Part shown: piece after piece, positions 18,994 through 50,363 of the stretch
Position numbering within the stretch: the first letter of the stretch is position 1
Layout: each line of letters starts with the position of its first letter
NCBI GenBank assembly: GCA_016195985.1
Contig: JACPYP010000013.1
Span: 12,116 to 76,115 of the forward strand
Reading direction: 5' to 3'
Length of the DNA: 64,000 nt
Origin: Acidobacteriota bacterium
Lineage (GTDB): Bacteria > Acidobacteriota > Holophagae > Holophagales > Holophagaceae
The notes under the pieces: generated by a model
The model's database searches: none
Told to the model about the DNA's origin: nothing
What the model saw: the letters and a program-made list of their open reading frames with translations, nothing else
Made by a program: the position numbers and the translations under genes

Positions 18994-20759
<1,766 letters not shown>

Positions 20760-20782
20760 TCGACCGCGGCTTCGCGGTTCAA

Positions 20783-20816
20783 GCAAAGGCCCTGCGGATG
20801 CGGGGCCTTTGCGTTT
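20783..20816 (+). terminator. Rho-independent terminator after groEL
   Basis: GCAAAGGCCC - 10-nt loop - GGGCCTTTGC followed by GTTT. Confidence 0.6.
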
Positions 20817-20887
20817 CGGGCCCTTGGTCTTCCTGTTGCGGGGGAAGGAACTCCGGTAGCATTCCGGAAACCCCACAAGAGGCACCC

Positions 20888-21537: not shown

Positions 21538-21560
21538 ACTAATGACAATAAAGTCTTTTT

Positions 21561-21685
21561 TAATTACCACCTATGGGTTGACTATGATCTGAAACAGGCG
21601 GATCCTTCCCTCGAATCCTCCGGAATGTCTTCCCGGGCGGATAGACAGGACCAGGGCCCATGACCACGGAACATCTGCAAGACGG
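21561..21685 (+). repeat. Copy A of a duplicated ~125-nt promoter/leader element
   Basis: Hand alignment to 23731..23857 gives roughly 75% identity with one small indel. Blocks include TAATTAC, GGTTGACTATG, GGCGGATCCTTC, CGGG..GAT.GACAG and CCATGA.CA.GGAAC. Confidence 0.8.
21578..21606 (+). promoter_or_regulatory. Putative sigma-70-type promoter (TTGACT-17 nt-GATCCT) inside copy A
   Basis: The -35-like TTGACT and a hexamer with A2/T6 at exactly 17-nt spacing are conserved in both copies, after an AT-rich stretch. Not experimentally supported. Confidence 0.35.
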
Positions 21686-21748
21686 AGTGAATCCCGCCAT
21701 TCCTGGAACGCATTCAATCGGCTTGTCCCTCTTTGACCGGAGCGTTCG

Positions 21749-22516
21749 ATGATTCAAAAGAAAGCAATGCTGATCGACATTTCGATGTGCGTGGGCTGCA
21801 ACGCCTGCCAGGACGGCTGCAAGGCGGAGAACAAGCTGGCGCCGAGCGAGGAGAAACGCCTGTCTCCCACGGCCTACACGGCCCTGAGCGAACACAACGG
21901 CAAGTTCGTCCGCCACATGTGCCAGCACTGCGACGTGCCCACCTGCGTGTCGGTGTGTCCCGTGGCGGCCTTCACCAAGACGGCCGAGGGGCCGGTGCTT
22001 TACGACGCCAACAAGTGCATCGGCTGCCGGTACTGCATGCAGGCCTGCCCCTTCAAGGTGCCGCGTTACGAGTGGGCCAGCACCAAGCCGCGCGTGCAGA
22101 AATGCATCTTCTGCGCGCCGCGCATCACCAAGGGCCTGCAGCCTGCCTGCGCCGAAGCCTGCCCCACCGGCGCCACGAAGTTCGGCGACCGGGATGAACT
22201 CATTCTGGAAGCCAGCAACCGCATGCAGGCCGAGCCCGGCAAGTATGTCGCCAAGATCTACGGGCAGAAGGACGTGGGGGGGACTTCCATCCTCTTCATC
22301 AGCCCCGTGCCCTTCGAGGAGCTGGGTTTCGACACGCGGCTCGGGGACACGCCCATGCCCCTGCTGACCCTGAGCGCCATGTCGAAGATCCCCAACGTGG
22401 TCAGCATGGGCGGAGTCATGCTCGCGGGCATCTGGTGGATCACCAACCGCCGCGCCGAGGTCCAGCACTACGAAGCTTCCCTGAAACACGACGCCACTTC
22501 CAAGACGCAGGAATAG
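21749..22516 (+). CDS. 4Fe-4S ferredoxin-type subunit, NrfC/HybA/DmsB family, with a C-terminal TM anchor
   Basis: Four Cys clusters (CVGCNACQDGC; CQHCDVPTCVSVCP; CIGCRYCMQACP; CIFC...CAEACP). C-terminal helix VVSMGGVMLAGIWWI. No twin-arginine signal visible. Confidence 0.85.
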   Translation: MIQKKAMLIDISMCVGCNACQDGCKAENKLAPSEEKRLSPTAYTALSEHNGKFVRHMCQHCDVPTCVSVCPVAAFTKTAEGPVLYDANKCIGCRYCMQACPFKVPRYEWASTKPRVQKCIFCAPRITKGLQPACAEACPTGATKFGDRDELILEASNRMQAEPGKYVAKIYGQKDVGGTSILFISPVPFEELGFDTRLGDTPMPLLTLSAMSKIPNVVSMGGVMLAGIWWITNRRAEVQHYEASLKHDATSKTQE

Positions 22517-22518
22517 CC

Positions 22519-23649
22519 ATGGCCTCCTACAAATCCTCTCGCATCACCGTGTGGAGCGTCATCGCCGCCACCTTGATCACCACGGGCGTCGCGGCAGCCA
22601 TCGCCCGGTTCACCCTGGGCCTCGGGGCCACCACCAACCTCAGCGACACCTTCCCCTGGGGCCTCTGGATCGGCTTCGATTTCCTGGGCATCGGCCTGGC
22701 CGCCGCAGGGTTCACCATCGTGGCGGCAGTGCATCTGTTCCACGCCACGGAGTATGAGCCCATCGTGCGGCCCGCCATCCTCACGGCCTTCATCGGCTAC
22801 CTGCTGGTGGTCCTGGTGCTGGTCATCGATCTGGGGCGCCCCGAGCACTTCTGGCATCCGCTGGTGATGTGGAATCCCCACTCGGTGATGTTCGAGATCA
22901 CCTGGTGCGTGATCCTCTACACCACCGTGCTGTCCATGGAGTTCGCGCCCATCGTGCTTGAGAAATTCAACATGCACGCCCCCATCAAGTGGATCCACAG
23001 CGTGTCGCTGCCCCTCATGGTGATGGGAGTCCTTCTGTCCACGCTGCACCAGTCCTCCTTCGGCTCGCTCTACCTGATCGTGCCCAACCGGCTGCATCCG
23101 CTCTGGTACACCCCGCTGCTCCCGGTGCTGTTCTTCGTGTCCTGCATCGCTTCCGGCATCTCCATGGTGCTCATCGAATCCCTGATCTTCTCCCGCAATG
23201 GACGCCGGATCCTGCCCACCGCGCTGCGGGCCAAGCTGGCCAAGATCACCGCCATCGCCCTGGCCATGTACCTCGTGATCCGCGTCCAGGACATGGTTTC
23301 ACGCGGCGTGTTCCACCACGCGAAGCACCTCAGCTACCACAGCATCGCCTTCTGGGCCGAGCTCCTCATCGGATTCGCCGTTCCGCTCGCCCTGCTGCTC
23401 ATCACCAGGGTGCGCACCTCCCGCCGCGGGCTTTACATCGCTTCCCTGATGGTGCTGGCGGGCTTCGCCCTGAACCGCATGAACACGGCCATCACGGGCC
23501 TGGAAGACTGGCCTGCGCGGACCTACTTCCCCTCTCTGTTGGAAGTGCTCATCACCCTGGGCATCGCCGCCATCGGCTTCACGGCCTTCTCGTTCATCGC
23601 CCGCCGCCTCCCGATTTTCGCCCCCGAGCCCCTTCCGCCCCAGGCCTGA
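22519..23649 (+). CDS. NrfD/HybB-family polytopic membrane subunit (quinone-interacting)
   Basis: ATG 2 nt after the upstream stop. About 9-10 predicted TM helices. N-terminal pattern TFPWGLWIGFDFLGIGLAAAG is typical of NrfD/PsrC/HybB. Confidence 0.8.
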   Translation: MASYKSSRITVWSVIAATLITTGVAAAIARFTLGLGATTNLSDTFPWGLWIGFDFLGIGLAAAGFTIVAAVHLFHATEYEPIVRPAILTAFIGYLLVVLVLVIDLGRPEHFWHPLVMWNPHSVMFEITWCVILYTTVLSMEFAPIVLEKFNMHAPIKWIHSVSLPLMVMGVLLSTLHQSSFGSLYLIVPNRLHPLWYTPLLPVLFFVSCIASGISMVLIESLIFSRNGRRILPTALRAKLAKITAIALAMYLVIRVQDMVSRGVFHHAKHLSYHSIAFWAELLIGFAVPLALLLITRVRTSRRGLYIASLMVLAGFALNRMNTAITGLEDWPARTYFPSLLEVLITLGIAAIGFTAFSFIARRLPIFAPEPLPPQA

Positions 23650-23730
23650 ACTGTGGCGTCTCGACCATGCCTTTTCGCAGCCACGTTCGCTTTGATGGGC
23701 CACGGATTGCCGGTTCGTCAAAGCTTGAGC

Positions 23731-23857
23731 TAATTACTACCAAAAGGTTGACTATGCTCCAGCGAGGGCGGATCCTTCACATGAGTCCACCCGGAACTTC
23801 CTTTCGGGCTGGATTGACAGAGCGGGAATCCATGATCATGGAACTTCCTACCGCCCA
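23731..23857 (+). repeat. Copy B of the duplicated ~125-nt promoter/leader element
   Basis: See copy A. Lies 67 nt upstream of the sensor kinase ATG. Confidence 0.8.
23748..23776 (+). promoter_or_regulatory. Putative sigma-70-type promoter (TTGACT-17 nt-GATCCT) inside copy B
   Basis: Same hexamers and spacing as in copy A. Confidence 0.35.
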
Positions 23858-23923
23858 TTTCAACAGCGCCACCAGTGGCACCCGCTGGCCGTTCGCCCAC
23901 GACTCGGAAAAGGGAGCCTGACC

Positions 23924-25450
23924 ATGCGGACCCGCATCGGCACTCGTCTCATCCTTGGCGCCGGCCTGACGACGGCGGCCGTCATCGGCGGAATGGCATT
24001 CACGGTCATCCGTTCGCACACAGCGCAGCTGCTGGCGGAGCGGACCCGAAGCGCCGACCAGCTGAGCGAGACCATCAAGAGCTCCACCCATTTCGACATG
24101 CTTGAGAACCGGCGGGACAACCTCCACCGCCAGATCCGCTCCGTGGGCGGCCTGCAGGGGCAGGGGATCCGCAAGGTGCGGGTGTTCAACAAGGAAGGCC
24201 GGATCATGTTTTCCTCGTCGGCCGAAGAGATCGGCACCAGCCTGGATACCCGGGGCGAGGCCTGCTATGCCTGCCATCAGGAAGGCCGTCCTTTGGAGCG
24301 CCTGGAGATCAACGCGAGGGCCCGAACCTTCAGGACGCCGGATGGTTCCCGGGTGCTGGGGCTTATCGCCCCCATCCCCAACGAGCCTTCTTGTTCCACC
24401 GCCGATTGCCATGCCCACAGCGCCAAGCAAAGCCTCCTGGGTGTTCTGGATGTCAACGTTTCCCTGGACGAAGTGGACCGGGAGATCTCCCGAAGCCGGG
24501 CGGTCATCATCTCGTCGGCGGTCCTGGCCGTTCTGGCGGGCAGTCTCATGCTTTGGTGGCTCAACCGAAGGCTGGTCGTCCGGCCGGTGGCGGCGCTGGT
24601 GGAAGGGACGCGGCGCGTCAGCGAGGGCGACCTTTCGGCGACCATTCCTGTGAACGGGCGGCATGAGCTCAGCCAGTTGGCCCGGGCCTTCAACGACATG
24701 ACCGGCAATCTGGCGGACACGCACCGCCAGCTGGCCCAGGCCGACAAGCTTGCCTCCGTGGGCCGCCTGGCCGCGGGCATCGCCCACGAGATCAACAACC
24801 CGCTGACGGGCGTTCTCAGCTACGCCTCGCTCCTGCGCAAACGCATGGCGGAAGATGTGTCCGCCTGCGAGGACCTGGACGTGATCGTGCGGGAGACGGT
24901 GCGCTGCCGGGGCATCATCCGCGGCCTGCTGGATTTCGCCCGTCCCGCGGCACCCGCCCGCAAGCCCATGGACCTGAACGACGTGGTCCGCCGTTCGGTG
25001 TCCGTGGTGATGACGCAGCTGTCCCTCCATCACGTGGATCTGTCCCTGGGACTGGCGACGGACCTGCCTCTGGTCCAGGCGGATGCGAACCAGATCGAGC
25101 AGGTGGTTGTAAACCTCCTGCTGAATGCTGCCGATGCCATTGGAGAGGCGGGCGGGAACATCCGGGCCACCACCCGTCCGGGCCTCGGGGGCAGCATCGA
25201 GCTCCTCCTTCAAGACAGCGGACACGGCATTCCCGCTGAAGACCTTCCCCGCATCTTTGAACCGTTCTTCACCACCAAGGGCAACCATGGCACCGGTTTG
25301 GGGCTGGCGGTGAGCTGGGGCATCGTGGAGGCCCACGGCGGCGCCCTGGAGGTCCAGAGCGAACTGGGCCAGGGCACCTGCTTCACCCTCCGGTTGCCCA
25401 CCAATCCCGATTCCGAAGGCAGCAAGCCGATTCTTCCCACTCTCACCTAG
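23924..25450 (+). CDS. Sensor histidine kinase (2 TM, periplasmic domain with c-haem binding motifs, HAMP, HisKA, HATPase)
   Basis: TM1 LILGAGLTTAAVIGGMAFTVI. Periplasmic CYACH (nt 24263-24277) and CSTADCH (nt 24392-24412). TM2, HAMP, H-box AAGIAHEINNPLTG, N-box LLLNAADA, G-boxes DSGHGIP and GTGLGLAV. Confidence 0.9.
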   Translation: MRTRIGTRLILGAGLTTAAVIGGMAFTVIRSHTAQLLAERTRSADQLSETIKSSTHFDMLENRRDNLHRQIRSVGGLQGQGIRKVRVFNKEGRIMFSSSAEEIGTSLDTRGEACYACHQEGRPLERLEINARARTFRTPDGSRVLGLIAPIPNEPSCSTADCHAHSAKQSLLGVLDVNVSLDEVDREISRSRAVIISSAVLAVLAGSLMLWWLNRRLVVRPVAALVEGTRRVSEGDLSATIPVNGRHELSQLARAFNDMTGNLADTHRQLAQADKLASVGRLAAGIAHEINNPLTGVLSYASLLRKRMAEDVSACEDLDVIVRETVRCRGIIRGLLDFARPAAPARKPMDLNDVVRRSVSVVMTQLSLHHVDLSLGLATDLPLVQADANQIEQVVVNLLLNAADAIGEAGGNIRATTRPGLGGSIELLLQDSGHGIPAEDLPRIFEPFFTTKGNHGTGLGLAVSWGIVEAHGGALEVQSELGQGTCFTLRLPTNPDSEGSKPILPTLT

Positions 25451-25459
25451 GAGGTCGCC

Positions 25460-26581
25460 ATGACCGCCGTATTGATCCTCTTCATGTTTGCGGCCTTCGT
25501 GGGCATCGATTACCTGATCCGCACGAACCTGCGCCGAATGCAGGAAAAACGGGCCCGGCAAGCCCGTGAAGCCGTGTTGAACACCGCCATTCGCCTGGAT
25601 TTCACCCACGAGGCCAAGAGCCTCAAGCGGGTCGAGGTGCCCAATCCCAAGGCCCGCATCCTCGCCGTGGACGACGAGGGCGTGGTGCTGGATTCCTTCC
25701 GGCGCATCCTCGTGCTGGAAGGCTTCAGCGTGGACACCGTGGAGCACGGACCCGAAGCCCTGGGGCTGGTTCAGCGCAACGACTACGACTTCGTGTTCAC
25801 GGACCTGAAGATGCCGGACATGGACGGCGTGGAAGTGGTGAAGGCCGTCAAGCACCTGCGCCCTGACGTGGACGTGGTCGTCATCACGGGCTACGGCAGC
25901 ATCGAGACCGCTGTCCAGACGCTGCAGCACGGCGCCTGCGAGTACGTGCAGAAGCCCTTCACCGCCGACGAGCTGGGCGAGTTCGCGCGCAAGCTGGTCA
26001 TCAAGCGCGAAGCCCGCATCCAGGCCGCCAGCCAGCCCAATGTCCGGGTGGTTTCGCCTGAAATGGCGGAGGTGATGCCCGCCTCCGAATTCTGCGTGCC
26101 TGGCGGCGCCTTCATTTCCCCGGGCCACGCCTGGGTTCGCATTGAGCCCGAAGGCCAGGTGCGCATCGGCATCGATGACTTCATCCGGAAGGCCCTGGGC
26201 TCCGTGAAGGAAATCAGCCTGCCCGAGCGCGGCAAGACCGTGAAGCAGGGCGAGACGCTCTTCACCCTCAAGAGCGCGGCGGGAACCGTCCATGTGGCCG
26301 CGCCGGTCTCAGGCCGGGTCGAGCACGACAACGCAGGCCTGAAATCCGACCCGGGAGAGCTCATCCACAGCCCCTACGACCGAGGCTGGGTCTGCCTGCT
26401 GACCCCCACGGACCTCGCGACCGAACTGCCCGGCCTGAAGATCGGCAAGCCGGTCATCGAGTGGTACCAGGAGGAGATCACCCGGCTGCGGGCGAACAAG
26501 GGCCCCGAAGGCACGGGCACCCTGGATTGGGCGGCCTTCGAACAGCAGTTCCTGGGCGGTCACGCTTCCGCGCAGGCCTGA
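25460..26581 (+). CDS. Membrane-anchored response regulator: TM helix, REC domain, glycine-cleavage-H-like C-terminal domain
   Basis: N-terminal helix MTAVLILFMFAAFVGIDYLI. REC (ILAVDDEG, FTDLKMPDMDG with D115, VITGYG, VQKPF). C-terminal HAWVRIEPEGQVRIGIDDFIRKALGSV...APVSGRVEHDN...SPYDRGW matches the GcvH fold pattern. Confidence 0.8.
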   Translation: MTAVLILFMFAAFVGIDYLIRTNLRRMQEKRARQAREAVLNTAIRLDFTHEAKSLKRVEVPNPKARILAVDDEGVVLDSFRRILVLEGFSVDTVEHGPEALGLVQRNDYDFVFTDLKMPDMDGVEVVKAVKHLRPDVDVVVITGYGSIETAVQTLQHGACEYVQKPFTADELGEFARKLVIKREARIQAASQPNVRVVSPEMAEVMPASEFCVPGGAFISPGHAWVRIEPEGQVRIGIDDFIRKALGSVKEISLPERGKTVKQGETLFTLKSAAGTVHVAAPVSGRVEHDNAGLKSDPGELIHSPYDRGWVCLLTPTDLATELPGLKIGKPVIEWYQEEITRLRANKGPEGTGTLDWAAFEQQFLGGHASAQA

Positions 26582-26592
26582 TCCGGAATGAA

Positions 26593-26629
26593 GCGAAGGC
26601 CACGGAGGCTCAGCTTCCGTGGCCTTCGC
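26593..26629 (+). terminator. Hairpin after the response regulator, overlapping the lipA 3' end
   Basis: GCGAAGGCCACGGA - loop - TCCGTGGCCTTCGC (14-bp stem). No strong U-tract. Confidence 0.45.
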
Positions 26630-27566
26630 CTGCATGGTAGCTGGAACGCACCAGGGGAGCGGATTCCACCCGCTGGAAACCCATCTCCCGCCCCTTCTGC
26701 TTGTAGAAGTCGAACTCGGCGGGCTCCACGAAGCGGTGCAGCGGCAGGTGCAGCTCCGACGGGGGGAGATACTGTCCGATGGTGGCGATGTCCACCCGGT
26801 TTGTCCGCCAATCGGCCATCAGCTCCAGCACCTGGTCGGAGGTTTCGCCCAGGCCCACCATGATGCCGCTCTTCACGCGCATGGCCGGGGCATGCTGGTC
26901 CCGCCATTCCGCCGTGCGGCGCAGGAGCGCCAGGCTCTGGGCGTAGTCCGCATCGGGCCGCACGCGCTTGTAGAGGTGGGGGACGGTCTCCACATTGTGG
27001 TTCAGCACGTCCGGTCCGGCTTCCAGGACCGCGGCCAGGGCCGCTTCGTTGCCCCGGAAATCGGGGATGAGCACTTCGATGCCGCAGTGGGGCGACAGCG
27101 TGCGGATCCACCGGATGGTGGCGGCGAAATGGGCGGAGCCGCCATCGGGCAGGTCGTCGCGGTTGACGGAGGTGACCACGGCGAACTTGAGGCCCAGGCG
27201 CGCCACGGCCTCGGCCACGCGCTGGGGCTCCCCGGGGTCCAACTCGCCCGGCTTGCCTTTGCCCACGTTGCAGAAGCCGCAGTGGCGCGTGCAGATATCG
27301 CCCATGAGCATGAAGGTGGCCGTGCGGTGGATGCCCCAGCACTCATGCAGGTTGGGGCAGCGGGCCTCTTCGCAGACCGTCACCAGGCGCTGCTCTCGGA
27401 TGAGGCCCTCCACCTCGGCCACCACCTCCGGGGCCGGGACGCGGATCTTCAGCCATTCGGGACGGGGGCCGGGAAGGACGGGAGGGCGAGCCATAGCCTT
27501 CCATTGTGAGGGATGAATGCGGCTGTATGGACGGGCTGGGCTCCATTCTTTTTTATCGGTGTTCAT
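26610..27566 (-). CDS. lipA: Lipoyl synthase
   Basis: CEEARCPNLHECW and radical-SAM CTRHCGFCNV motifs. Start is uncertain (ATG 27566 or ATG 27494). Confidence 0.92.
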   Translation of the reverse strand: MNTDKKEWSPARPYSRIHPSQWKAMARPPVLPGPRPEWLKIRVPAPEVVAEVEGLIREQRLVTVCEEARCPNLHECWGIHRTATFMLMGDICTRHCGFCNVGKGKPGELDPGEPQRVAEAVARLGLKFAVVTSVNRDDLPDGGSAHFAATIRWIRTLSPHCGIEVLIPDFRGNEAALAAVLEAGPDVLNHNVETVPHLYKRVRPDADYAQSLALLRRTAEWRDQHAPAMRVKSGIMVGLGETSDQVLELMADWRTNRVDIATIGQYLPPSELHLPLHRFVEPAEFDFYKQKGREMGFQRVESAPLVRSSYHAGEGHGS

Positions 27567-42921: not shown

Positions 42922-43067
42922 TGTATAAAAAAAATACACACGTATTGAATCTTCCGGCGCAGATCGATGGCGCCATTTATAAATATTTTGGTTGTAACAA
43001 TTAAAACAAATGGCTGTTTTGGAGGGGGGCGCCGATTCTTTTCAGGTCAACTGTGAGGTGGAAGCTG

Positions 43068-43736
43068 ATGAGCCGAGTCAACAGGGGTTTCTCTATCTTG
43101 GAACTGCTGGTTGTCGTCGTGATTGTGGGCATCGTCGTCGCGGTCACGGGTAATTGGTATTCCGTTTCCCAGCCAGCGGCTGTGAAGGGCACGGTGAATG
43201 CCCTGGTGGGCTTCCTTTCCGAAGCCCGTTCCGTCGCTCGAACCACCGGACGCACGGTCACACTGACGACGAGCGGGGCCCAGGCCAACCTGATGGTCAC
43301 CTTCCCAACCCAGGGAAATGTCACTCCCGTCCCGGCCGGACAAGAATTAACCACCTGGCGGAGGGATGCGGCTGGGACGGAAGTGGCCAGGTATTCCGGG
43401 ATAGATTCGTCTGGAGCCTGGCCGATTTATACTCAGGCTGCTCCAGTCCCCAATCCGTTGACAGGTGGTGTTGCATCTGTTTCCGCTTTGTTTACCAATG
43501 GGGTGCAGCCCACCGCCACCGCGAAGCTTTTCAAAGGAGTAGCGGATACCAGTTTCTCCTTTGATTCGACGGGCCGGATCAACCGCGACCTTTGGATTTA
43601 TGTCGGAGGCATGCGAAATGGCGCCTCCTATCCGAGTGCTCCTGTTGGGTTGGTGCTCGTGACTCGTTCCAATGGCATTCACAGCTTTTACAAACCCAAT
43701 GCGGGTGACCCCGCTGCGCCCTGGCAGCGCCTGTAG
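43068..43736 (+). CDS. Type IV minor pilin / pseudopilin, FimT/GspH-like
   Basis: Prepilin N-terminus NRGFSILELLVVVVIVGIVVAV (G/F cleavage-methylation motif with Glu+5). Confidence 0.75.
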   Translation: MSRVNRGFSILELLVVVVIVGIVVAVTGNWYSVSQPAAVKGTVNALVGFLSEARSVARTTGRTVTLTTSGAQANLMVTFPTQGNVTPVPAGQELTTWRRDAAGTEVARYSGIDSSGAWPIYTQAAPVPNPLTGGVASVSALFTNGVQPTATAKLFKGVADTSFSFDSTGRINRDLWIYVGGMRNGASYPSAPVGLVLVTRSNGIHSFYKPNAGDPAAPWQRL

Positions 43737-44283: not shown

Positions 44284-45435
44284 ATGATGCTCCAATCCTT
44301 CCGGCGGGTTCGCCCCCTTCAACACGGATTCTCGCTGATCGAGATGCTGGTGGCAGTCATGTTCATCGGCATTCTTTCTGCGGGCATGATGCGCATATAT
44401 TCTGCGAACCTGTCAGGCTTCCAACGCGTCAACGATACAATCGCCAGCCAGCGGCGCGGCCGTTGGGCGCTCTCGTCCCTTCAAGATGATGTGGCGTCCG
44501 TGGGCTTTTTCGCATTTGTTCCCTTCAACCAACCCGCTGGTTATTCCGTGGTTTCGGGGAGTCAGGAACCTTTCATGATTCTCCCGTCGCCGACTGCGGT
44601 TTCGGTGACAGGTCCCGATCCCACCAATCCCACGGTAATGCTCACAGCGAACTTAAGTCCTAATCCCGACGAGCTGCAGTTCGTGGGGGACATTCCATTG
44701 CCTATTCAGGCGACGGTCCTATCGACCTCGGGGACCGCCCTTGGTCTTAACGTAAGCAGTGGCAATATGGCAGATATCGAAGCAGGGGACATTGTGGCGA
44801 TCCTGGACCCCACCTTCGAGCAGGTCAAGGTTGCGACCAAGCCTTCCAGCACCACCCTTAGCATTTCCGCCACAGGGGCGAGCGAACAGGCTAGTCGACA
44901 GGTGGCGGGTTATGCCCTGTCACCCACACTCTCTGCTCACGCAGTGGGCGTTCCTGTGGTCGTTTTCCGCCCCAACGTGGTGACCCGCTACTCCATCCAA
45001 GCACGTGCTTGGGACCCATCGAATGCAGGCACCATCCCGTGTCTGGTTCGCCAGCAGACGCCGTACCCGGATGGAGGTGCCTTGATCGATTGGACGGGCG
45101 TTCAGGCGGATGTGATCGCAGAGAACATCGATGGTTTCCGGGTGGACATCAGCTTCGACGGTGGAACCACTTGGTTGCGGCAGGCCGCTGGAAGTTGGGA
45201 CGCCATCGTCTCAAGCATGCAAGGGCTCAGCCCCGGCGGGGTCGTTTTGAATCCAAGGGATGCCTCGAATCCGCTCTGGTACCGCAATTTCCCCTGCTTG
45301 ATTCGTATGGACATAACAGCGCGCTCTGCAGCCCCCAAGGCCGCCAATTCGGATATTACCGGCCAGGCGGCCTATGTGCGTAGAACGCAGACGCTGATGG
45401 TGACCCCTCGCAATTTCGGTTTGCCCCTCTTCTGA
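44284..45435 (+). CDS. pilW: Type IV minor pilin PilW-like
   Basis: QHGFSLIEMLVAVMFIGILSAGM prepilin motif. Size and position after the pilV-like gene fit. Confidence 0.65.
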   Translation: MMLQSFRRVRPLQHGFSLIEMLVAVMFIGILSAGMMRIYSANLSGFQRVNDTIASQRRGRWALSSLQDDVASVGFFAFVPFNQPAGYSVVSGSQEPFMILPSPTAVSVTGPDPTNPTVMLTANLSPNPDELQFVGDIPLPIQATVLSTSGTALGLNVSSGNMADIEAGDIVAILDPTFEQVKVATKPSSTTLSISATGASEQASRQVAGYALSPTLSAHAVGVPVVVFRPNVVTRYSIQARAWDPSNAGTIPCLVRQQTPYPDGGALIDWTGVQADVIAENIDGFRVDISFDGGTTWLRQAAGSWDAIVSSMQGLSPGGVVLNPRDASNPLWYRNFPCLIRMDITARSAAPKAANSDITGQAAYVRRTQTLMVTPRNFGLPLF

Positions 45436-45445
45436 GGAGATCCTT

Positions 45446-46051
45446 GTGACTAAACGTCGTAATTCCACTCGTATTCGGCAGCAGGGCGGTCTGACTATTA
45501 TCCTCGCTCTGGTGCTTGTGGGGGTTATGGGAGCCGCCACCTTCAGCTTAAGTCGCAACGCGATTCGGGAGTTGTCGACTGCTGGCGCCATCATTCAGGG
45601 CGGTAAAGCTGCTGCTGCGGCCGACGCAGGGCTGGATTGGGTGATCATTTGGGGTCAGGGGGGTGTGAAGTTTTCTGATTTCACTGCTGCGGCTCCCCAC
45701 GCCGAACAATCAGCCTTGATAAGCAAAATGAAGGATAGCATCTCGCCCACTTTGGCTTATCCGATCTTTACTCTTTCAGGCAATGGAGTTGACGCCATGT
45801 CCATGAACGTTGGCTCTGCTACCACGAACCAGAATTTTGATATCGAGTTCCGATTCTTAGGCAATCTGCCCTCTGGCCGCCAGAGCGGAGGCAGTTCCGA
45901 TAACGCTGGTGCCTCGGGTGGAACGAAAGGCGGTGCGGGAGGGGTCGGCGACTATGTCTGGCGTATCCTCGCGACGGGACGTGCCACACCCCAGAACGGC
46001 CAAACCTACCAGGCCCAACGCGAACTCATCAGCACTCTGCCTCCCTTCTAA
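45446..46051 (+). CDS. pilX: PilX-like minor pilin
   Basis: GTG start after GAGGAGA. QQGGLTIILALVLVGVMGAATFSL is a PilX N-terminal-type segment. Confidence 0.6.
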   Translation: MTKRRNSTRIRQQGGLTIILALVLVGVMGAATFSLSRNAIRELSTAGAIIQGGKAAAAADAGLDWVIIWGQGGVKFSDFTAAAPHAEQSALISKMKDSISPTLAYPIFTLSGNGVDAMSMNVGSATTNQNFDIEFRFLGNLPSGRQSGGSSDNAGASGGTKGGAGGVGDYVWRILATGRATPQNGQTYQAQRELISTLPPF

Positions 46052-46079
46052 TGAACCCGATCCATCACCGGGAGAACCC

Positions 46080-49000
46080 ATGAACGGCTCATTCATGCAT
46101 CGGCTCAAGGCTTTCTGCTTCACGGCGCTCGCTGCAGCTTGTCTCTTTGGGCAGGTGGACAAGAACCTCGTCATGAGCACCGACCTGCTCGATGTTTACT
46201 CCAGTGGAAAGATCAAGCCGGAGGTGCTCACCATCTTCGATTTCTCCGGCTCCATGGAGAATACGTTTTGGCACAAAGACTACTGGACGGATCAAAACAG
46301 CGACTGGGGTTATGCCATACGCTATAACGGCAGTGCGTTGAAATTTGTCAAGCCGTCTGGTTCGTCTGCAGCAGCTCTTTCGAATAACCTTGCCAACGCC
46401 ACTGGGTTTCTGGTTGATCCCGCAGGGAACGCCATCAGTGGGACGCCGACGGCGGCCCTCGTCAAGCAGGCCAGTCACGCCCGTATGACCGCCACCCTAA
46501 CCTCTGGCGGCAAAACCTACACTCGGACTGTCGATATCCCACTTCCGTGGACCATCCTCCAGGTCCCGGCGAGTCTGCCGGTGTCTGCTGGGACCCCGCC
46601 TGTTCCCGACTACATCATGGACCCAGCAAGTGCAACTGCGACTCTCCCACCCACCACCAAAGTCGAGTTTGACAAGGTGTATTCTCTTAGCAACACCAAC
46701 ATCTACAACACGAGCAATGGCCAGATCGGTCTGTTTGCCTACAACCCCGACTATCTGAACTGGATCTTCTGGGGAACCGTCGCCAAGGCGGCGGATGGAA
46801 ACAGCTTCAATGCCGCGACCGTCACAGGTTATCTGGATGACCGCAAACAATCCGCCCCCAGCAACACTCTGACGAGTCCCGTCGCCGGTCTGGGAGGTTA
46901 TTTCCCTGGGGGTGGGGGATATGTTATTCCTGGCGCTTACGATCCCAGTTCAGGTTCCTCATCGACGCCAAGCACCACTGTGTGGAATACAGGTAAGACT
47001 TTTGCCAACGGCCTTCCTGTAGGGACCCGTTGCCACTTTCTGAAGCGAGCCGTGCTCTCCACCTGGTTCGGGACCCAGGGGGGGGCGCAGACCCAGAAGT
47101 CCGTGCTCTGGGCTTACCGGTTCCTCGATGCCAGTGGCACTGAACAGAGCATTTCTCCAAGAACGAACATCAACACCGACAACGAAATTGGAGGCAGCAG
47201 CCAGCGGGCACTGACCCAGCTCAAGAGTGTGACGAGCGGCATCCATGCTTCCGTGTCGGCCATTCAGACGAAGTCGCCCGCCAACGGAACACCCCTGACC
47301 TACGCTTTGGCAAATGCCTACGCACAGTTGGTGATCAACGATTCGGGATCGAGCGTCTTCGATTCGGGCAACGCAAAGGATGGCAAGTCACCTTGCCGAA
47401 CGTCCTTCGTCATTCTCTTCACCGACGGCCTTGGCAACGATGACAACGGCGGGAGCGTGGTGGGCACGGCGGAGGTCGCAACCAATGCGTTGACGGCCGT
47501 AAATACGGAAGCTGACATTCGGGCCATCTCCTTTTCCAAGTTGAATCCAACAACTTCATCGCTTTCCAGCTCGAACTTCAACATTTGGAGCTTGGCGGCC
47601 GTGGCTGCCCATGCCACCGATGCCTCGGCATCCGCCCAATTGACGAGCGGCATCGCATCCGTCAGCTCCTTCGCGCCATTCCGGATCATGTCCCGGGGAG
47701 CCAGTGCGAGTAAGCCAAGGAAGATCACTACCTTTACTGTGGGGTTGTCTTTGGCGGGTTCCAATACGTCAAGCTTCACCGTGGGCGGCAAGGGACCGCT
47801 GCTGCGCACCGCATTGTATGGCGATCCGGAGGTTACCAAATTTGATTTGGCCCACTCCGTGGCCAATGACAAGGGCAGCCAGATCAACAAGACCTTGTAT
47901 CCCGACGCCATCGCCACCGGATTTTATGATGCAACCGACCCCCAGGGGCTCACTAACAGCCTGATTTCACTGTTCTCCCGCATCACTCGAGCTGATACGG
48001 GTATTACGGCACCGGCCGCGCCTCTGGTGGGACTGAACCTGGGCAATCGCGCCTACCTGGGACGTTTCGCCACGGGGATTACCGACAAAGACAACCCCAG
48101 TTCCGTTTGGAGCGGTGATCTGCTCATGGCCGGTCTTGGCATTCAGGGCGACGGATCCGTTGGCTTGAAAGATAAAGATGGGAACTTTCAACAGGATATC
48201 AACGAGAACAATGCGGTGGCTTCCGCTGCCAAAGTTCTGAAGGTCACGGGATGGGCCAATGGAAAGCGCAATGTTTACACGATGATTCCTGGCACCAGCA
48301 TTCCGGCAGGCGGATTAGACCTCACCCTGCCTGCCCAGGCTTTCAGCGACCAGAATGCTGCCCTCCGCGATCCAAAGGTGATGGGGACCTCCAGCGCGAC
48401 CGAGGCCATCAGCCTCATTCGCTTCATCCGTGGGGCAGATCTGGCTGCGCAAACGGACCCGGTGAACCCGACAACCAAAACCGGCACACGGCTCGACATC
48501 ATGGGCGATGTGATCAACAGTTCGCCCGCCGCAGTTGAGTACGATGCAGGCCTGCTGTCCTCGGTCGGTTTTACTGGAACCTATACTGGCGACACGGACC
48601 TGCGGTACCAAGTGATATTCGTGGGTGACAACCAGGGGCATTTCCACGCCTTCGCTGAGAAGAGCGGCATCACTGGTGGCGGATTGCTGCATGGTGAACT
48701 GGTGGAGCTATGGAGCTTCGTGCCACCCGAATTGCTGAACAACCCCAGTGTCAGCACCACGGTCTCCAAGTTGAGCCGCCTGCAATCCAAGGGCAATGCC
48801 CATATCTATACCGTGGACGGTTCCCCTTTTATCTACTTCGATGACTCGGCGACGAAGAACCGCAAGGTCGATAGCGCAGATAAGGTCCGGGTGATTTTCG
48901 GCATGCGCAAGGGCGGGCGCAGTTACTACGCCTTGGACGTGGCGGATCCCGTCAAGCCGAAGCTGGTGTGGATGCTCGACCCCAACACCTCAACGGACCC

Positions 49001-50363
49001 CACCATCCGAACCATGGGGCTGGCCACCTCTGCGCCAGCGGTAGCCAGAGTGGAGATCGGCAGCCCCGCCTCTGTCCAAGACTTGGTGCTCTTGGGAGGC
49101 GGAATGAGCAACAACGAACTAGACGCCAATACCATCGGGAATAATGCCAGTGCCACCAAGCTAGGCCGATCTCTCTTGGCGCTTGATGTCCTGACTGGCG
49201 CGCCCGTTAAGGTTTACGATTTCATTAATAATAGCGCTCTGGCTGCGGCCTTCCCCAACATGGGCGCCATTGGCGCAGGCGCCTTCCCCCTGGAATTCTT
49301 TGTGGGCTCTCGGAAGGCGCAGCGAGTCTATTTCGGCGACTACTCTGGTGGCGTCTACGCCCTTGGTTCGATGAAGCAGTTCACGACCTCGCCAGTGGGT
49401 TGGCGAATTGACAGCTCCAACATCGACGAGTGGACCTCAGATGGCAGTGCGAACGTCAGCACGACACCCGGAAATGCAGGCATGCGCTGGATCTACAAGG
49501 GCCAGGTGACAGTGGATGGGACGGGCATGCTGACCGGAGCTTCTCCCGTGACCTCATTACCGGTTGCCTATCGGTTGCCCAGGGCCATCCCCGAGTTCCG
49601 CCGCCCTGCGGCGAGCACTAACGCGCCCAACATGATCCCGCCCGTGGTTGGAGTTACCTTCGGGACTGGAGACCGGAACGATCCTATGGACCTTGATAAA
49701 TCCATTGGCGGCCCAGTCTCTGGAATTCCCTATCGCCAGATCATGGTCTTTGATCGGCAAGACAGTGCCGACTTGCCCACGGTGGGGGGGCTACCAAGCG
49801 ATGTCAATACTCTCGCAGGAGCCATCACCGACGCCCAGCTCTCTAACCAGACTGGCACAAGCCTCCCAGGGAACACGAGCTATCTGGGCAACAACGTCAA
49901 TTTGGGCTACTACTTGTCCTTCAGCAAGACCACGGATACCACTGTAATTCCCAATATCACCTCCTACGAGAAATCCTACCTGGCTTCCATGGTGATGAAC
50001 GGCGGCTTGATTTTCTCCACCTTCAAGCCTTCGACCTCCGCCGCGGCAGGTACCACCGGCTGCGGTGGTGCGGGAAATACCTATACATTCCGCATGTGCG
50101 ATGCTCTTGCGCCAGTCTTCAATAGCGGCGCCGCCGCCGTCGCTGGGGTGAACGATAAGAAACAGGCCGGATGCAATGGTTATGTCTTCAGCTGGACCAA
50201 CCTCGCCGGTGATCTAACTGCCATCGGCAGCCGCATGATTCTGCAGAGCGGTCAAGACACACCCACCGGTACAGCGACTGCCAGCAACGTCAAGATTCAG
50301 GATCTCGTCGTTGAAGGTGGCACGAATGCTTTCGCTCCCCGGGCTTGGCGCACCGTTCGCTGA
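46080..50363 (+). CDS. pilY1: PilY1-like pilus tip-associated adhesin (N-terminal VWA, C-terminal PilY1-type beta-propeller)
   Basis: ATG at 46080 after GGGAGA. Signal peptide. MIDAS-like DFSGSM and FVILFTDGLGNDD. C-terminal VIFVGDNQGHFHAF and VYFGDYSGGVYAL resemble PilY1 propeller motifs. Confidence 0.78.
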   Translation: MNGSFMHRLKAFCFTALAAACLFGQVDKNLVMSTDLLDVYSSGKIKPEVLTIFDFSGSMENTFWHKDYWTDQNSDWGYAIRYNGSALKFVKPSGSSAAALSNNLANATGFLVDPAGNAISGTPTAALVKQASHARMTATLTSGGKTYTRTVDIPLPWTILQVPASLPVSAGTPPVPDYIMDPASATATLPPTTKVEFDKVYSLSNTNIYNTSNGQIGLFAYNPDYLNWIFWGTVAKAADGNSFNAATVTGYLDDRKQSAPSNTLTSPVAGLGGYFPGGGGYVIPGAYDPSSGSSSTPSTTVWNTGKTFANGLPVGTRCHFLKRAVLSTWFGTQGGAQTQKSVLWAYRFLDASGTEQSISPRTNINTDNEIGGSSQRALTQLKSVTSGIHASVSAIQTKSPANGTPLTYALANAYAQLVINDSGSSVFDSGNAKDGKSPCRTSFVILFTDGLGNDDNGGSVVGTAEVATNALTAVNTEADIRAISFSKLNPTTSSLSSSNFNIWSLAAVAAHATDASASAQLTSGIASVSSFAPFRIMSRGASASKPRKITTFTVGLSLAGSNTSSFTVGGKGPLLRTALYGDPEVTKFDLAHSVANDKGSQINKTLYPDAIATGFYDATDPQGLTNSLISLFSRITRADTGITAPAAPLVGLNLGNRAYLGRFATGITDKDNPSSVWSGDLLMAGLGIQGDGSVGLKDKDGNFQQDINENNAVASAAKVLKVTGWANGKRNVYTMIPGTSIPAGGLDLTLPAQAFSDQNAALRDPKVMGTSSATEAISLIRFIRGADLAAQTDPVNPTTKTGTRLDIMGDVINSSPAAVEYDAGLLSSVGFTGTYTGDTDLRYQVIFVGDNQGHFHAFAEKSGITGGGLLHGELVELWSFVPPELLNNPSVSTTVSKLSRLQSKGNAHIYTVDGSPFIYFDDSATKNRKVDSADKVRVIFGMRKGGRSYYALDVADPVKPKLVWMLDPNTSTDPTIRTMGLATSAPAVARVEIGSPASVQDLVLLGGGMSNNELDANTIGNNASATKLGRSLLALDVLTGAPVKVYDFINNSALAAAFPNMGAIGAGAFPLEFFVGSRKAQRVYFGDYSGGVYALGSMKQFTTSPVGWRIDSSNIDEWTSDGSANVSTTPGNAGMRWIYKGQVTVDGTGMLTGASPVTSLPVAYRLPRAIPEFRRPAASTNAPNMIPPVVGVTFGTGDRNDPMDLDKSIGGPVSGIPYRQIMVFDRQDSADLPTVGGLPSDVNTLAGAITDAQLSNQTGTSLPGNTSYLGNNVNLGYYLSFSKTTDTTVIPNITSYEKSYLASMVMNGGLIFSTFKPSTSAAAGTTGCGGAGNTYTFRMCDALAPVFNSGAAAVAGVNDKKQAGCNGYVFSWTNLAGDLTAIGSRMILQSGQDTPTGTATASNVKIQDLVVEGGTNAFAPRAWRTVR

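Follow-up and report, generated by a model that had tools for sequence, protein, structure and literature searches.

What a two-component response regulator might do with an output domain built like the H protein of glycine cleavage is the question raised by one gene in a 64,000-nt stretch of a Holophagaceae (Acidobacteriota) genome (contig JACPYP010000013.1, positions 12,116–76,115, assembly GCA_016195985.1; 'the window' hereafter). The gene encodes a 373-residue response regulator (RR) composed of an N-terminal transmembrane (TM) helix, a receiver domain (REC) and a GcvH-like domain, and it is linked to genes for an iron–sulphur (FeS) protein, an NrfD-family membrane protein and a sensor histidine kinase (HK). 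This architecture and the gene linkage are near-certain. We propose, as a composite reading to which we give an even chance, that the RR is a phospho-switchable, membrane-docked partner of the NrfD-type quinone module.

Domain architecture and the lipoyl-lysine position

The RR open reading frame (ORF) begins 9 nt past the kinase stop at 25450, and its third-position GC content of 0.88, in a window of 65% GC, marks the coding frame. The protein matches Pfam Response_reg at residues 67–173 (E = 5.8e-28; 97.7 bits, cut-off 30.2) and GCV_H at residues 223–321 (E = 3.6e-19; 69.3 bits, cut-off 22.2), with a further weak match to NQRA_N below the cut-off (E = 0.0021). Receiver residues Asp71, Asp72, Asp115, Thr143 and Lys165 are all intact, and Asp71, Asp115, Thr143 and Lys165 are invariant in a 58-sequence alignment. 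A first-pass annotation made from the letters alone had described a gene starting 9 nt after the kinase stop, an N-terminal TM helix, a complete receiver and no DNA-binding, AAA+, GGDEF or HD output. Each of these points is borne out: the ORF coordinates agree, there is one hydrophobic segment (residues 2–20), the receiver is complete and the Pfam scan of the RR returned no family of the four output types.

Foldseek matches the RR receiver to those of NtrC1, NtrX and Spo0F, and the best NCBIfam matches of the kinase, all below cut-off, are AtoS and ZraS. The receiver is of the NtrC/AtoC type and the kinase of the AtoS/ZraS type, with the AAA+ and helix-turn-helix output replaced. The RR is probably the cognate regulator of the adjoining HAMP–HisKA kinase, with phosphotransfer predicted to Asp115. 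In the searchable literature we found no paper describing a REC–GcvH architecture and no characterised regulator of this kind, in agreement with the earlier remark that the output type could not be matched to one, and no PDB entry pairs a receiver with an H-protein fold.

Related loci were collected by scanning species-representative genomes with a six-sequence alignment. At least 525 were found, and the best 80, which match at least 86% of the query length, were used; they come from Acidobacteriota, Eisenbacteria, KSB1, Ignavibacteria/Melioribacter, Bacteroidota, Calditrichota and the Beta-, Gamma- and Deltaproteobacteria. All of the at least 120 RR relatives listed have the REC+GCV_H architecture. 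An exhaustive search of 50%-identity representatives defined two forms: a long form of ~370 residues with a TM helix, present in hundreds of genomes, and a soluble short form of ~260–270 residues that consists of REC–GcvH only. The short-form profile search gave at least 120 proteins, all listed with REC+GCV_H and carrying only generic database names ('response regulator', 'CheY-like/GcvH').

The motifs HAWVRIEPEGQVRIGIDDF, APVSGRVEHDN and SPYDRGW are all found in the RR, and its C-terminal domain superposes on solved H proteins with Foldseek TM scores of 0.90–0.93 and root-mean-square deviations of 1.4–1.9 Å. Together with the GCV_H match, these results confirm the GcvH pattern noted in the first-pass annotation. 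In ungapped phmmer alignments to the pea, Thermus and M. tuberculosis H proteins, the lipoyl-lysine column falls on Ala274, and Lys271 of the RR aligns with the Glu that is conserved in ESVK. An AlphaFold2 (AF2) model built on 58 sequences (predicted local distance difference test score, pLDDT, 84) has strands at residues 266–272 and 275–280; the hairpin tip is therefore Ala273–Ala274, and Lys271 lies within a strand. Alignments and model thus agree with the earlier assignment of the lipoyl-lysine position to Ala274.

Column statistics for this hairpin were taken from 91 long and 30 short forms, in which neither position 274 nor position 271 holds a conserved lysine; the short forms vary as much as the long ones at both. 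Among the long forms, position 274 is occupied by A (15), S (15), T (14), G (10), D (8), E (6), N (6) and K (4), and position 271 by K (49), R (22), Q (5), H (3), T (3) and others. The substitutes for Lys271 are R, Q, H, T, V, S or E, and this position prefers a basic residue rather than lysine specifically. Since neither column holds a conserved lysine, the domain is, as judged from these alignments, not a lipoyl carrier. Of the readings given in the first-pass annotation, modification in an unusual register and a swinging arm are both excluded: Lys271 is neither at the hairpin tip nor conserved, and position 274 is fully variable. A GcvH-like domain without lipoyl lysine stands, and an adaptor role for it is plausible.

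The case for a genuine acyl or lipoyl carrier at Lys271, shifted in register and served by a neighbouring lipoyl synthase, draws on the adjoining gene: a lipoyl-synthase-like radical SAM gene (26610–27566, minus strand; Radical_SAM and LIAS_N) lies convergent to the RR gene, 29 nt downstream of it, and Lys271 is conserved in the close Geothrix relatives. Against this, Lys271 lies in a strand of the AF2 model and not at the hairpin tip, and it is replaced in 42 of the 91 long forms, and the RR scores 64.7 bits against the GcvH equivalog TIGR00527 (cut-off 115.85) and 67.9 bits against NF002270 (cut-off 117). LipA adjacency occurs at 15 of the 80 related loci, all within one Geothrix/Holophagaceae synteny block (L001–L016), and at none in other lineages. 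Because it is limited to this block, the adjacency is incidental, and we rejected a functional tie to the adjoining lipoyl synthase. Lipoylation in a shifted register was likewise rejected on the structure model and column statistics, and we consider it barely credible.

Because the lipoyl lysine has been lost, the GcvH fold probably serves to bind a protein and no longer to carry a cofactor. The invariant positions of the domain that are specific to the long form are Gly216, His223, Asp239, Leu267/Phe268, Cys312 and Ile328–Gly329, with Gly216, His223 and Gly329 conserved in 91 of 91. Cys312 (nt 26393–26395) is present in 87 of the 91 long forms; at the same place the short forms carry Tyr and the E. 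coli H protein Phe. Covariation links this cysteine to Leu267/Phe268, positions that hold Cys/Ala in the short forms and in E. coli GcvH. A redox role for Cys312 was considered, but compensatory repacking of the core is the more likely explanation for this set of residues.

Membrane docking and the conserved four-gene module

The hydrophobic segment of the RR is followed by Arg21, Arg25, Arg26, Lys30, Arg31 and Arg33, a distribution that fits a predicted single-pass anchor with its N-terminus outside and C-terminus inside. One face of the TM helix is conserved in the long forms, with Phe13 in 88, Asp17 in 84 (plus four with Glu) and Arg21 in 87 of the 91 sequences, at spacing i, i+4, i+8. The anchor leads into a juxtamembrane motif (Leu55, 91/91; Arg57, 90/91; Glu51, 86/91; Lys56, 83/91); confidence of the AF2 model is low at residues 43–48. 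At the other end of the protein, the long forms carry two extra helices (residues 330–347 and 357–365 in the model) that are absent from the short forms. This region is also well conserved, with Ile328 in 86, Gly329 in all, Tyr336 in 82 and Phe364 in 85 of the 91 sequences. The conserved intramembrane face and the near-invariant juxtamembrane motif argue for specific membrane docking rather than passive tethering.

The two redox genes upstream of the kinase resemble HmcBC, NhcBC and HybAB. The FeS protein is closest in NCBIfam to HmcB (249 bits, cut-off 420) and HybA (188, cut-off 263), and the NrfD protein to HybB (292, cut-off 450) and HmcC (287, cut-off 550). The latter has about nine hydrophobic segments with a Lys/Arg bias that fits an N-in topology. 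The FeS ORF starts MIQKKAMLIDISMCVGC, and an in-frame TGA 15 nt upstream (21734–21736) bars an N-terminal extension. Related FeS proteins fall into a signal-less class A, which includes that of the window, and a class B with a twin-arginine translocation (Tat) signal, the latter often accompanied by cytochrome c.

Linkage was counted where the RR gene is flanked by 6 kb or more on each side, a condition that leaves 47 related loci. ORF clustering recovers HK and NrfD at 47/47 and FeS at 46/47, and tblastn finds the FeS gene at the remaining locus (L036). The four genes are co-directional in all 47 loci but occur in at least four orders, including FeS–NrfD–HK–RR, HK–RR–FeS–NrfD, RR–FeS–NrfD–HK–RR and versions with two RR genes. 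This linkage spans Acidobacteriota, Eisenbacteria, KSB1, Ignavibacteria/Melioribacter, Calditrichota and the Beta-, Gamma- and Deltaproteobacteria. When ORFs within 8 kb were clustered without bias at the 80 loci, only RR, HK, NrfD and FeS recurred; the other clusters were antisense artefacts or lineage-specific genes. In the Melioribacter cluster the gene order is Tat-FeS protein, NrfD, multihaem cytochrome c3, kinase, short REC–GcvH protein and TM–REC–GcvH protein, an arrangement like that of Nhc/Hmc-type modules. A multihaem cytochrome c is present at related loci L049 and L086–L091 and is absent beside the window cluster, and a scan of other ORFs of the window turned up neither a hydrogenase nor a cytochrome nor any further redox partner. 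RR, HK, FeS and NrfD form a widespread conserved module, to which a cytochrome c is added in many lineages. The first-pass annotation had proposed the NrfC/NrfD-like proteins only as pull-down targets, and the genomic linkage in 47 of 47 loci goes further.

The sequence relationships within the module are incongruent. Over the loci compared (L001–L016, L019 and L022–L024), the RR and kinase of the window are 78–86% identical to those of L001–L015, and its FeS and NrfD proteins are 38–50% identical to those of the same loci; the latter two are instead 72–78% identical to those of the Holophaga/Mesoterricola loci, where the RR is 62–67% identical. Set against the closest RR relatives alone, the RR is 80–86% and the FeS–NrfD cassette 46–50% identical. 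This incongruence implies an exchange of the FeS–NrfD cassette between two signal-less subtypes.

The most divergent long forms have lost key residues of the receiver. P0154 carries D71S, D72P and K165R, P0163 carries D115G, and P0243 and P0245 have no Response_reg match. Genes for the divergent members are tightly placed within FeS–NrfD–cytochrome c3 operons, as the fourth gene at L087–L090 and the first at L091. No histidine kinase was found in the recovered flanks of L086–L091, which cover the full 9 kb on both sides at L087 and less on one or both sides at the others. Since these receiver-dead, kinase-less forms sit inside the operons, the TM–GcvH-like protein appears to behave as an intrinsic component of the module, and a working receiver with its kinase resembles a layer of regulation that lineages such as that of the window possess. 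Taken with the invariable NrfD/FeS linkage, these variants suggest that the GcvH-like protein is a module partner to which phospho-control has been added, and the series illustrates how a structural subunit can gain such control.

The lysine-less domain also occurs in other settings. Rarer variants are REC–GcvH–HdrC-like fusions (P0155; ~442 residues, with two CxxCxxC-type clusters). At two WOR-3 loci (L082 and L083) the fusion gene comes after genes for a Cache–HAMP kinase, an NtrC-type activator and a short REC–GcvH protein and before one for a CCG (HdrB-like) protein, which gives the domain a second redox context.

Proposed mechanism and alternative explanations

In the mechanism we propose, the kinase would sense a periplasmic signal and phosphorylate Asp115, while the TM helix and juxtamembrane motif would dock the RR onto the NrfD-type complex. 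Through the NtrC-type receiver and its long α5 helix, the GcvH-like domain would shift its position on the cytoplasmic side of that complex, and this repositioning would alter quinone-linked electron-transfer activity or coupling post-translationally. The sequences show the domain architecture, the lack of a conserved lysine, the gene linkage and the occurrence of receiver-dead, kinase-less variants in such operons; we infer that the RR docks physically, that phosphorylation switches it and that electron flow responds. We also suggest, tentatively and with some doubt, that widespread Hmc/Nhc-like FeS–NrfD(–cytochrome c) quinone modules have in the TM–(REC)–GcvH-like protein their missing subunit on the cytoplasmic side, placed under a kinase switch in lineages such as this one.

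Several observations weigh against the RR being a docked partner of the NrfD module. Most NrfD complexes that have been characterised hold their FeS subunit in the periplasm, where a domain in the cytoplasm could not reach it. An inverted, cytoplasm-facing arrangement of the class A FeS–NrfD pair would permit direct contact between the FeS protein and the GcvH-like domain, but this arrangement is not supported: a crude positive-inside count gives N-in for both classes, with no sign of inversion in class A NrfD. In the window, the FeS–NrfD cassette has been swapped for another signal-less subtype with no matching change in the RR, which speaks against tight co-adaptation. Soluble short REC–GcvH paralogues occur without any NrfD module at L081 and L084, and the lysine-less domain is therefore not restricted to an NrfD partner. 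Finally, a related sequence element precedes both transcription units, hinting at coordinated transcriptional control by some factor.

The two copies of this element align over ~120 nt with a mean column identity of 76%, and share the cores GGTTGACTATG..GGCGGATCC, GGAT.GACAG and CCATGA.CA.GGAAC. A 30-nt core has only two sites in the window, where none is expected, and the element has no Rfam family match. Geothrix loci L001, L004, L005, L007, L009, L012 and L015 have it ahead of their FeS gene at ~75% conservation. The nearest relatives have only ~37 bp between NrfD and HK and no such spacer, so that the copy before the kinase is specific to the window lineage. Both copies also contain mini-ORFs of ~30 codons (21660–21752 and 23832–23921) that open with the conserved CCATGA; the stop of the first overlaps the FeS start codon (ATGA), and the second closes just ahead of the kinase start. 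The mini-ORFs may be chance, as the peptides are unlike beyond their first residues.

This element favours an indirect transcriptional role, in which the phosphorylated GcvH-like domain would control the FeS–NrfD genes by holding at the membrane, or letting go, a transcription factor or a sigma or anti-sigma factor. Such a role would be akin to the genetic effect reported for rrf1–rrf2 on the Desulfovibrio hmc operon. The same element stands before both units and is conserved ahead of the FeS gene in the Geothrix relatives, and the REC–GcvH genes of the WOR-3 loci come after those for a kinase and an activator of the NtrC type. The hmc operon, too, has regulator genes next to it, rrf1 and rrf2 (10.1101/2023.11.02.564894). 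No transcription factor family, however, recurs within 8 kb across the 80 loci, and the receiver-dead, kinase-less forms are hard to square with a role in signalling only. The GcvH fold is not known to bind DNA or sigma factors, and we regard this explanation as unlikely, with a modest chance of being correct. Those same divergent forms bear on the suggestion that the RR is a phosphate sink, which only drains or buffers phosphoryl groups, or a scaffold that organises the kinase at the membrane, in either case with a vestigial GcvH output. Paired RRs after one kinase are typical of sink or competitor pairs, and many of the loci do encode a soluble and a membrane-bound REC–GcvH protein after a single kinase. 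Such a role would leave unexplained why the GcvH-like domain persists where the receiver has decayed and the kinase is absent, and the domain and C-terminal helices are more conserved than a vestige would be expected to be, as the strict conservation of Gly216, His223 and Gly329 illustrates; we think a sink or scaffold very unlikely.

A further possibility is that the GcvH-like domain is no output at all but a ligand-binding second input to the receiver, its retained H-protein cleft accommodating a small molecule or the lipoyl arm of another protein. Most determinants of the H-protein fold are kept (HxW, Gly232, Gly237, PVSG..N and PY..GW) and only the lysine hairpin has diverged. Lipoate-binding proteins work with Hdr-like complexes, and the REC–GcvH–HdrC fusions beside CCG/HdrB-like genes recall them. 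The kept residues, on the other hand, belong mostly to the core and fold, no ligand-specific motif was identified in the domain, and no lipoate-metabolism gene is linked outside Geothrix. The pairing of Cys312 with Leu267/Phe268, in place of Phe with Cys/Ala in E. coli GcvH or Tyr with Cys/Ala in the short forms, has the appearance of a core swap and not of an active site. We judge ligand binding to be quite unlikely.

Should the RR indeed be a docked partner of the NrfD module, a two-component system would directly gate a respiratory quinone oxidoreductase post-translationally by means of an H-protein fold that has lost its lysine and been put to a new use. The great majority of response regulators act through transcription or through second-messenger enzymes. 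A membrane-tethered, cofactor-less H-fold output, linked without exception to a quinone-interacting NrfD module in many phyla, would represent a new route by which respiration or electron transfer to the outside could be tuned while gene expression stays as it is. Because Geothrix is an Fe(III) reducer, the RR may bear on that physiology. The cytoplasmic partner of Hmc and Tmc has been stated to be unknown (PMC4215793), and the RR would provide a concrete candidate for such a partner in Hmc/Nhc-type complexes.

Neighbouring features and comparison with known systems

Coordinates of the RR gene, its parts and the associated features are collected in Table 1.

Table 1. Features of the RR locus (positions are those of the window)
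Feature	Position (nt)	Strand	Basis
Upstream element, copy 1; FeS–NrfD unit, promoter or leader	21560..21680	+	Aligns with copy 2 over ~120 nt
HmcB/HybA-like four-cluster 4Fe-4S protein, 255 aa; C-terminal hydrophobic tail, no signal peptide	21749..22516	+	Pfam Fer4_11, 4.1e-24
HmcC/HybB-like NrfD-family integral membrane protein (quinone-interacting subunit)	22519..23649	+	Pfam NrfD, 1.8e-29
Upstream element, copy 2; before the kinase gene	23730..23855	+	Aligns with copy 1
Sensor histidine kinase, 508 aa: periplasmic sensor, HAMP, HisKA, HATPase_c	23924..25450	+	Pfam
TM–REC–GcvH-like response regulator, 373 aa	25460..26581	+	ATG start; Pfam, alignments, structure model
N-terminal TM helix (aa 2–20), conserved face F13/D17/R21	25463..25519	+	Hydrophobicity scan; AF2 model helix 2–44
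Juxtamembrane conserved motif (aa 45–60, RLDFTHEAKSLKRVEV)	25592..25639	+	Long-form alignment
Receiver domain and long α5 linker helix (aa 66–190)	25655..26029	+	Pfam Response_reg; AtoC/NtrC/NtrX/NtrC1-type families and structures nearest
GcvH-fold domain without lipoyl lysine (aa 211–325)	26090..26434	+	Pfam GCV_H; PDB alignments; Foldseek
Hairpin tip A273–A274, the lipoyl-Lys position of true H proteins	26276..26281	+	Alignments, AF2 model, column statistics
C-terminal helices (aa 330–365), TM form only; LKIG, WY and terminal W..F..FL motif	26447..26554	+	Long-form alignment; AF2 model

Other ORFs of the window are of less direct interest. A long ORF (23777–26293, minus strand) lies opposite the kinase and RR genes. 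A 600-residue ORF (19083–20885, minus strand) is antisense to groEL (19086–20759, plus strand) and has no Pfam or NCBIfam match; it is, by these features, a spurious high-GC shadow ORF. Farther downstream, a 1484-residue ORF without a Pfam match (45909–50363, plus strand) follows ORFs at 43053–43736 and 44284–45435, of which one has no match and the other encodes a protein whose N-terminus bears a methylation motif like that of type IV pilins. The 1484-residue product may be a pilus- or secretion-associated giant protein.

Compared with GcvH itself (PF01597, TIGR00527), the RR domain shares the whole fold, including the C-terminal helix, and the HxW, VGI(D/T), PVSG..N and PY..GW motifs. It differs in having Ala274, in LKSAA in place of ESVK, in its score below the equivalog cut-off and in its fusion to a TM helix and receiver; the two features that define the family, the lipoyl lysine and the equivalog score, are those that fail. 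Neither gcvT nor gcvP turned up in the scan of neighbouring genes and further ORFs of the window. Other lysine-less barrel-sandwich-hybrid domains, at the N-termini of NqrA and RnfC, are alike in placing a lipoyl/GcvH-like fold by membrane redox machinery; unlike the RR, these two proteins are large, soluble and devoid of a receiver. LbpA, the lipoate-binding protein of the Hdr-like systems of sulfur oxidisers, is lipoylated, unlike the RR domain. The window contains no Hdr, Nqr or Rnf component.

The closest redox counterparts are the Hmc and Nhc complexes of Desulfovibrio. Related loci add a multihaem c3-type cytochrome to the FeS and NrfD genes, giving an Nhc-like trio. In the window, the FeS and NrfD proteins all score below the Hmc/Nhc/HybAB equivalog cut-offs, the FeS protein is without a Tat signal, and there is no HmcA, HmcD, HmcE or HmcF. 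The Desulfovibrio hmc operon is reportedly subject to a genetic effect of rrf1–rrf2. Like the FeS–NrfD genes of our module, that operon has an RR-type gene, rrf1, beside it (10.1101/2023.11.02.564894). The 'Rrf1 homologs' of PMC13344952 match a 381-nt single-domain receiver, which suggests that proteins named Rrf1 are single-domain receivers with no GcvH-like domain. No protein of that name is among the matches listed in the short-form profile search, and the text and supplements of Rajeev 2011 make no mention of DVU0530 (D. vulgaris Rrf1).

Among response regulators, RssB, CheY and CpdR have protein-binding or degenerate-enzyme outputs. The RR resembles them in that its gene adjoins that of its kinase, its receiver is intact and its output shows no signature of DNA binding or catalysis. 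It differs in its membrane anchor, its lysine-less barrel-sandwich-hybrid output and its NtrC/AtoC–AtoS ancestry. By analogy with these adaptor-type regulators, the RR likely works through phospho-dependent protein–protein interaction.

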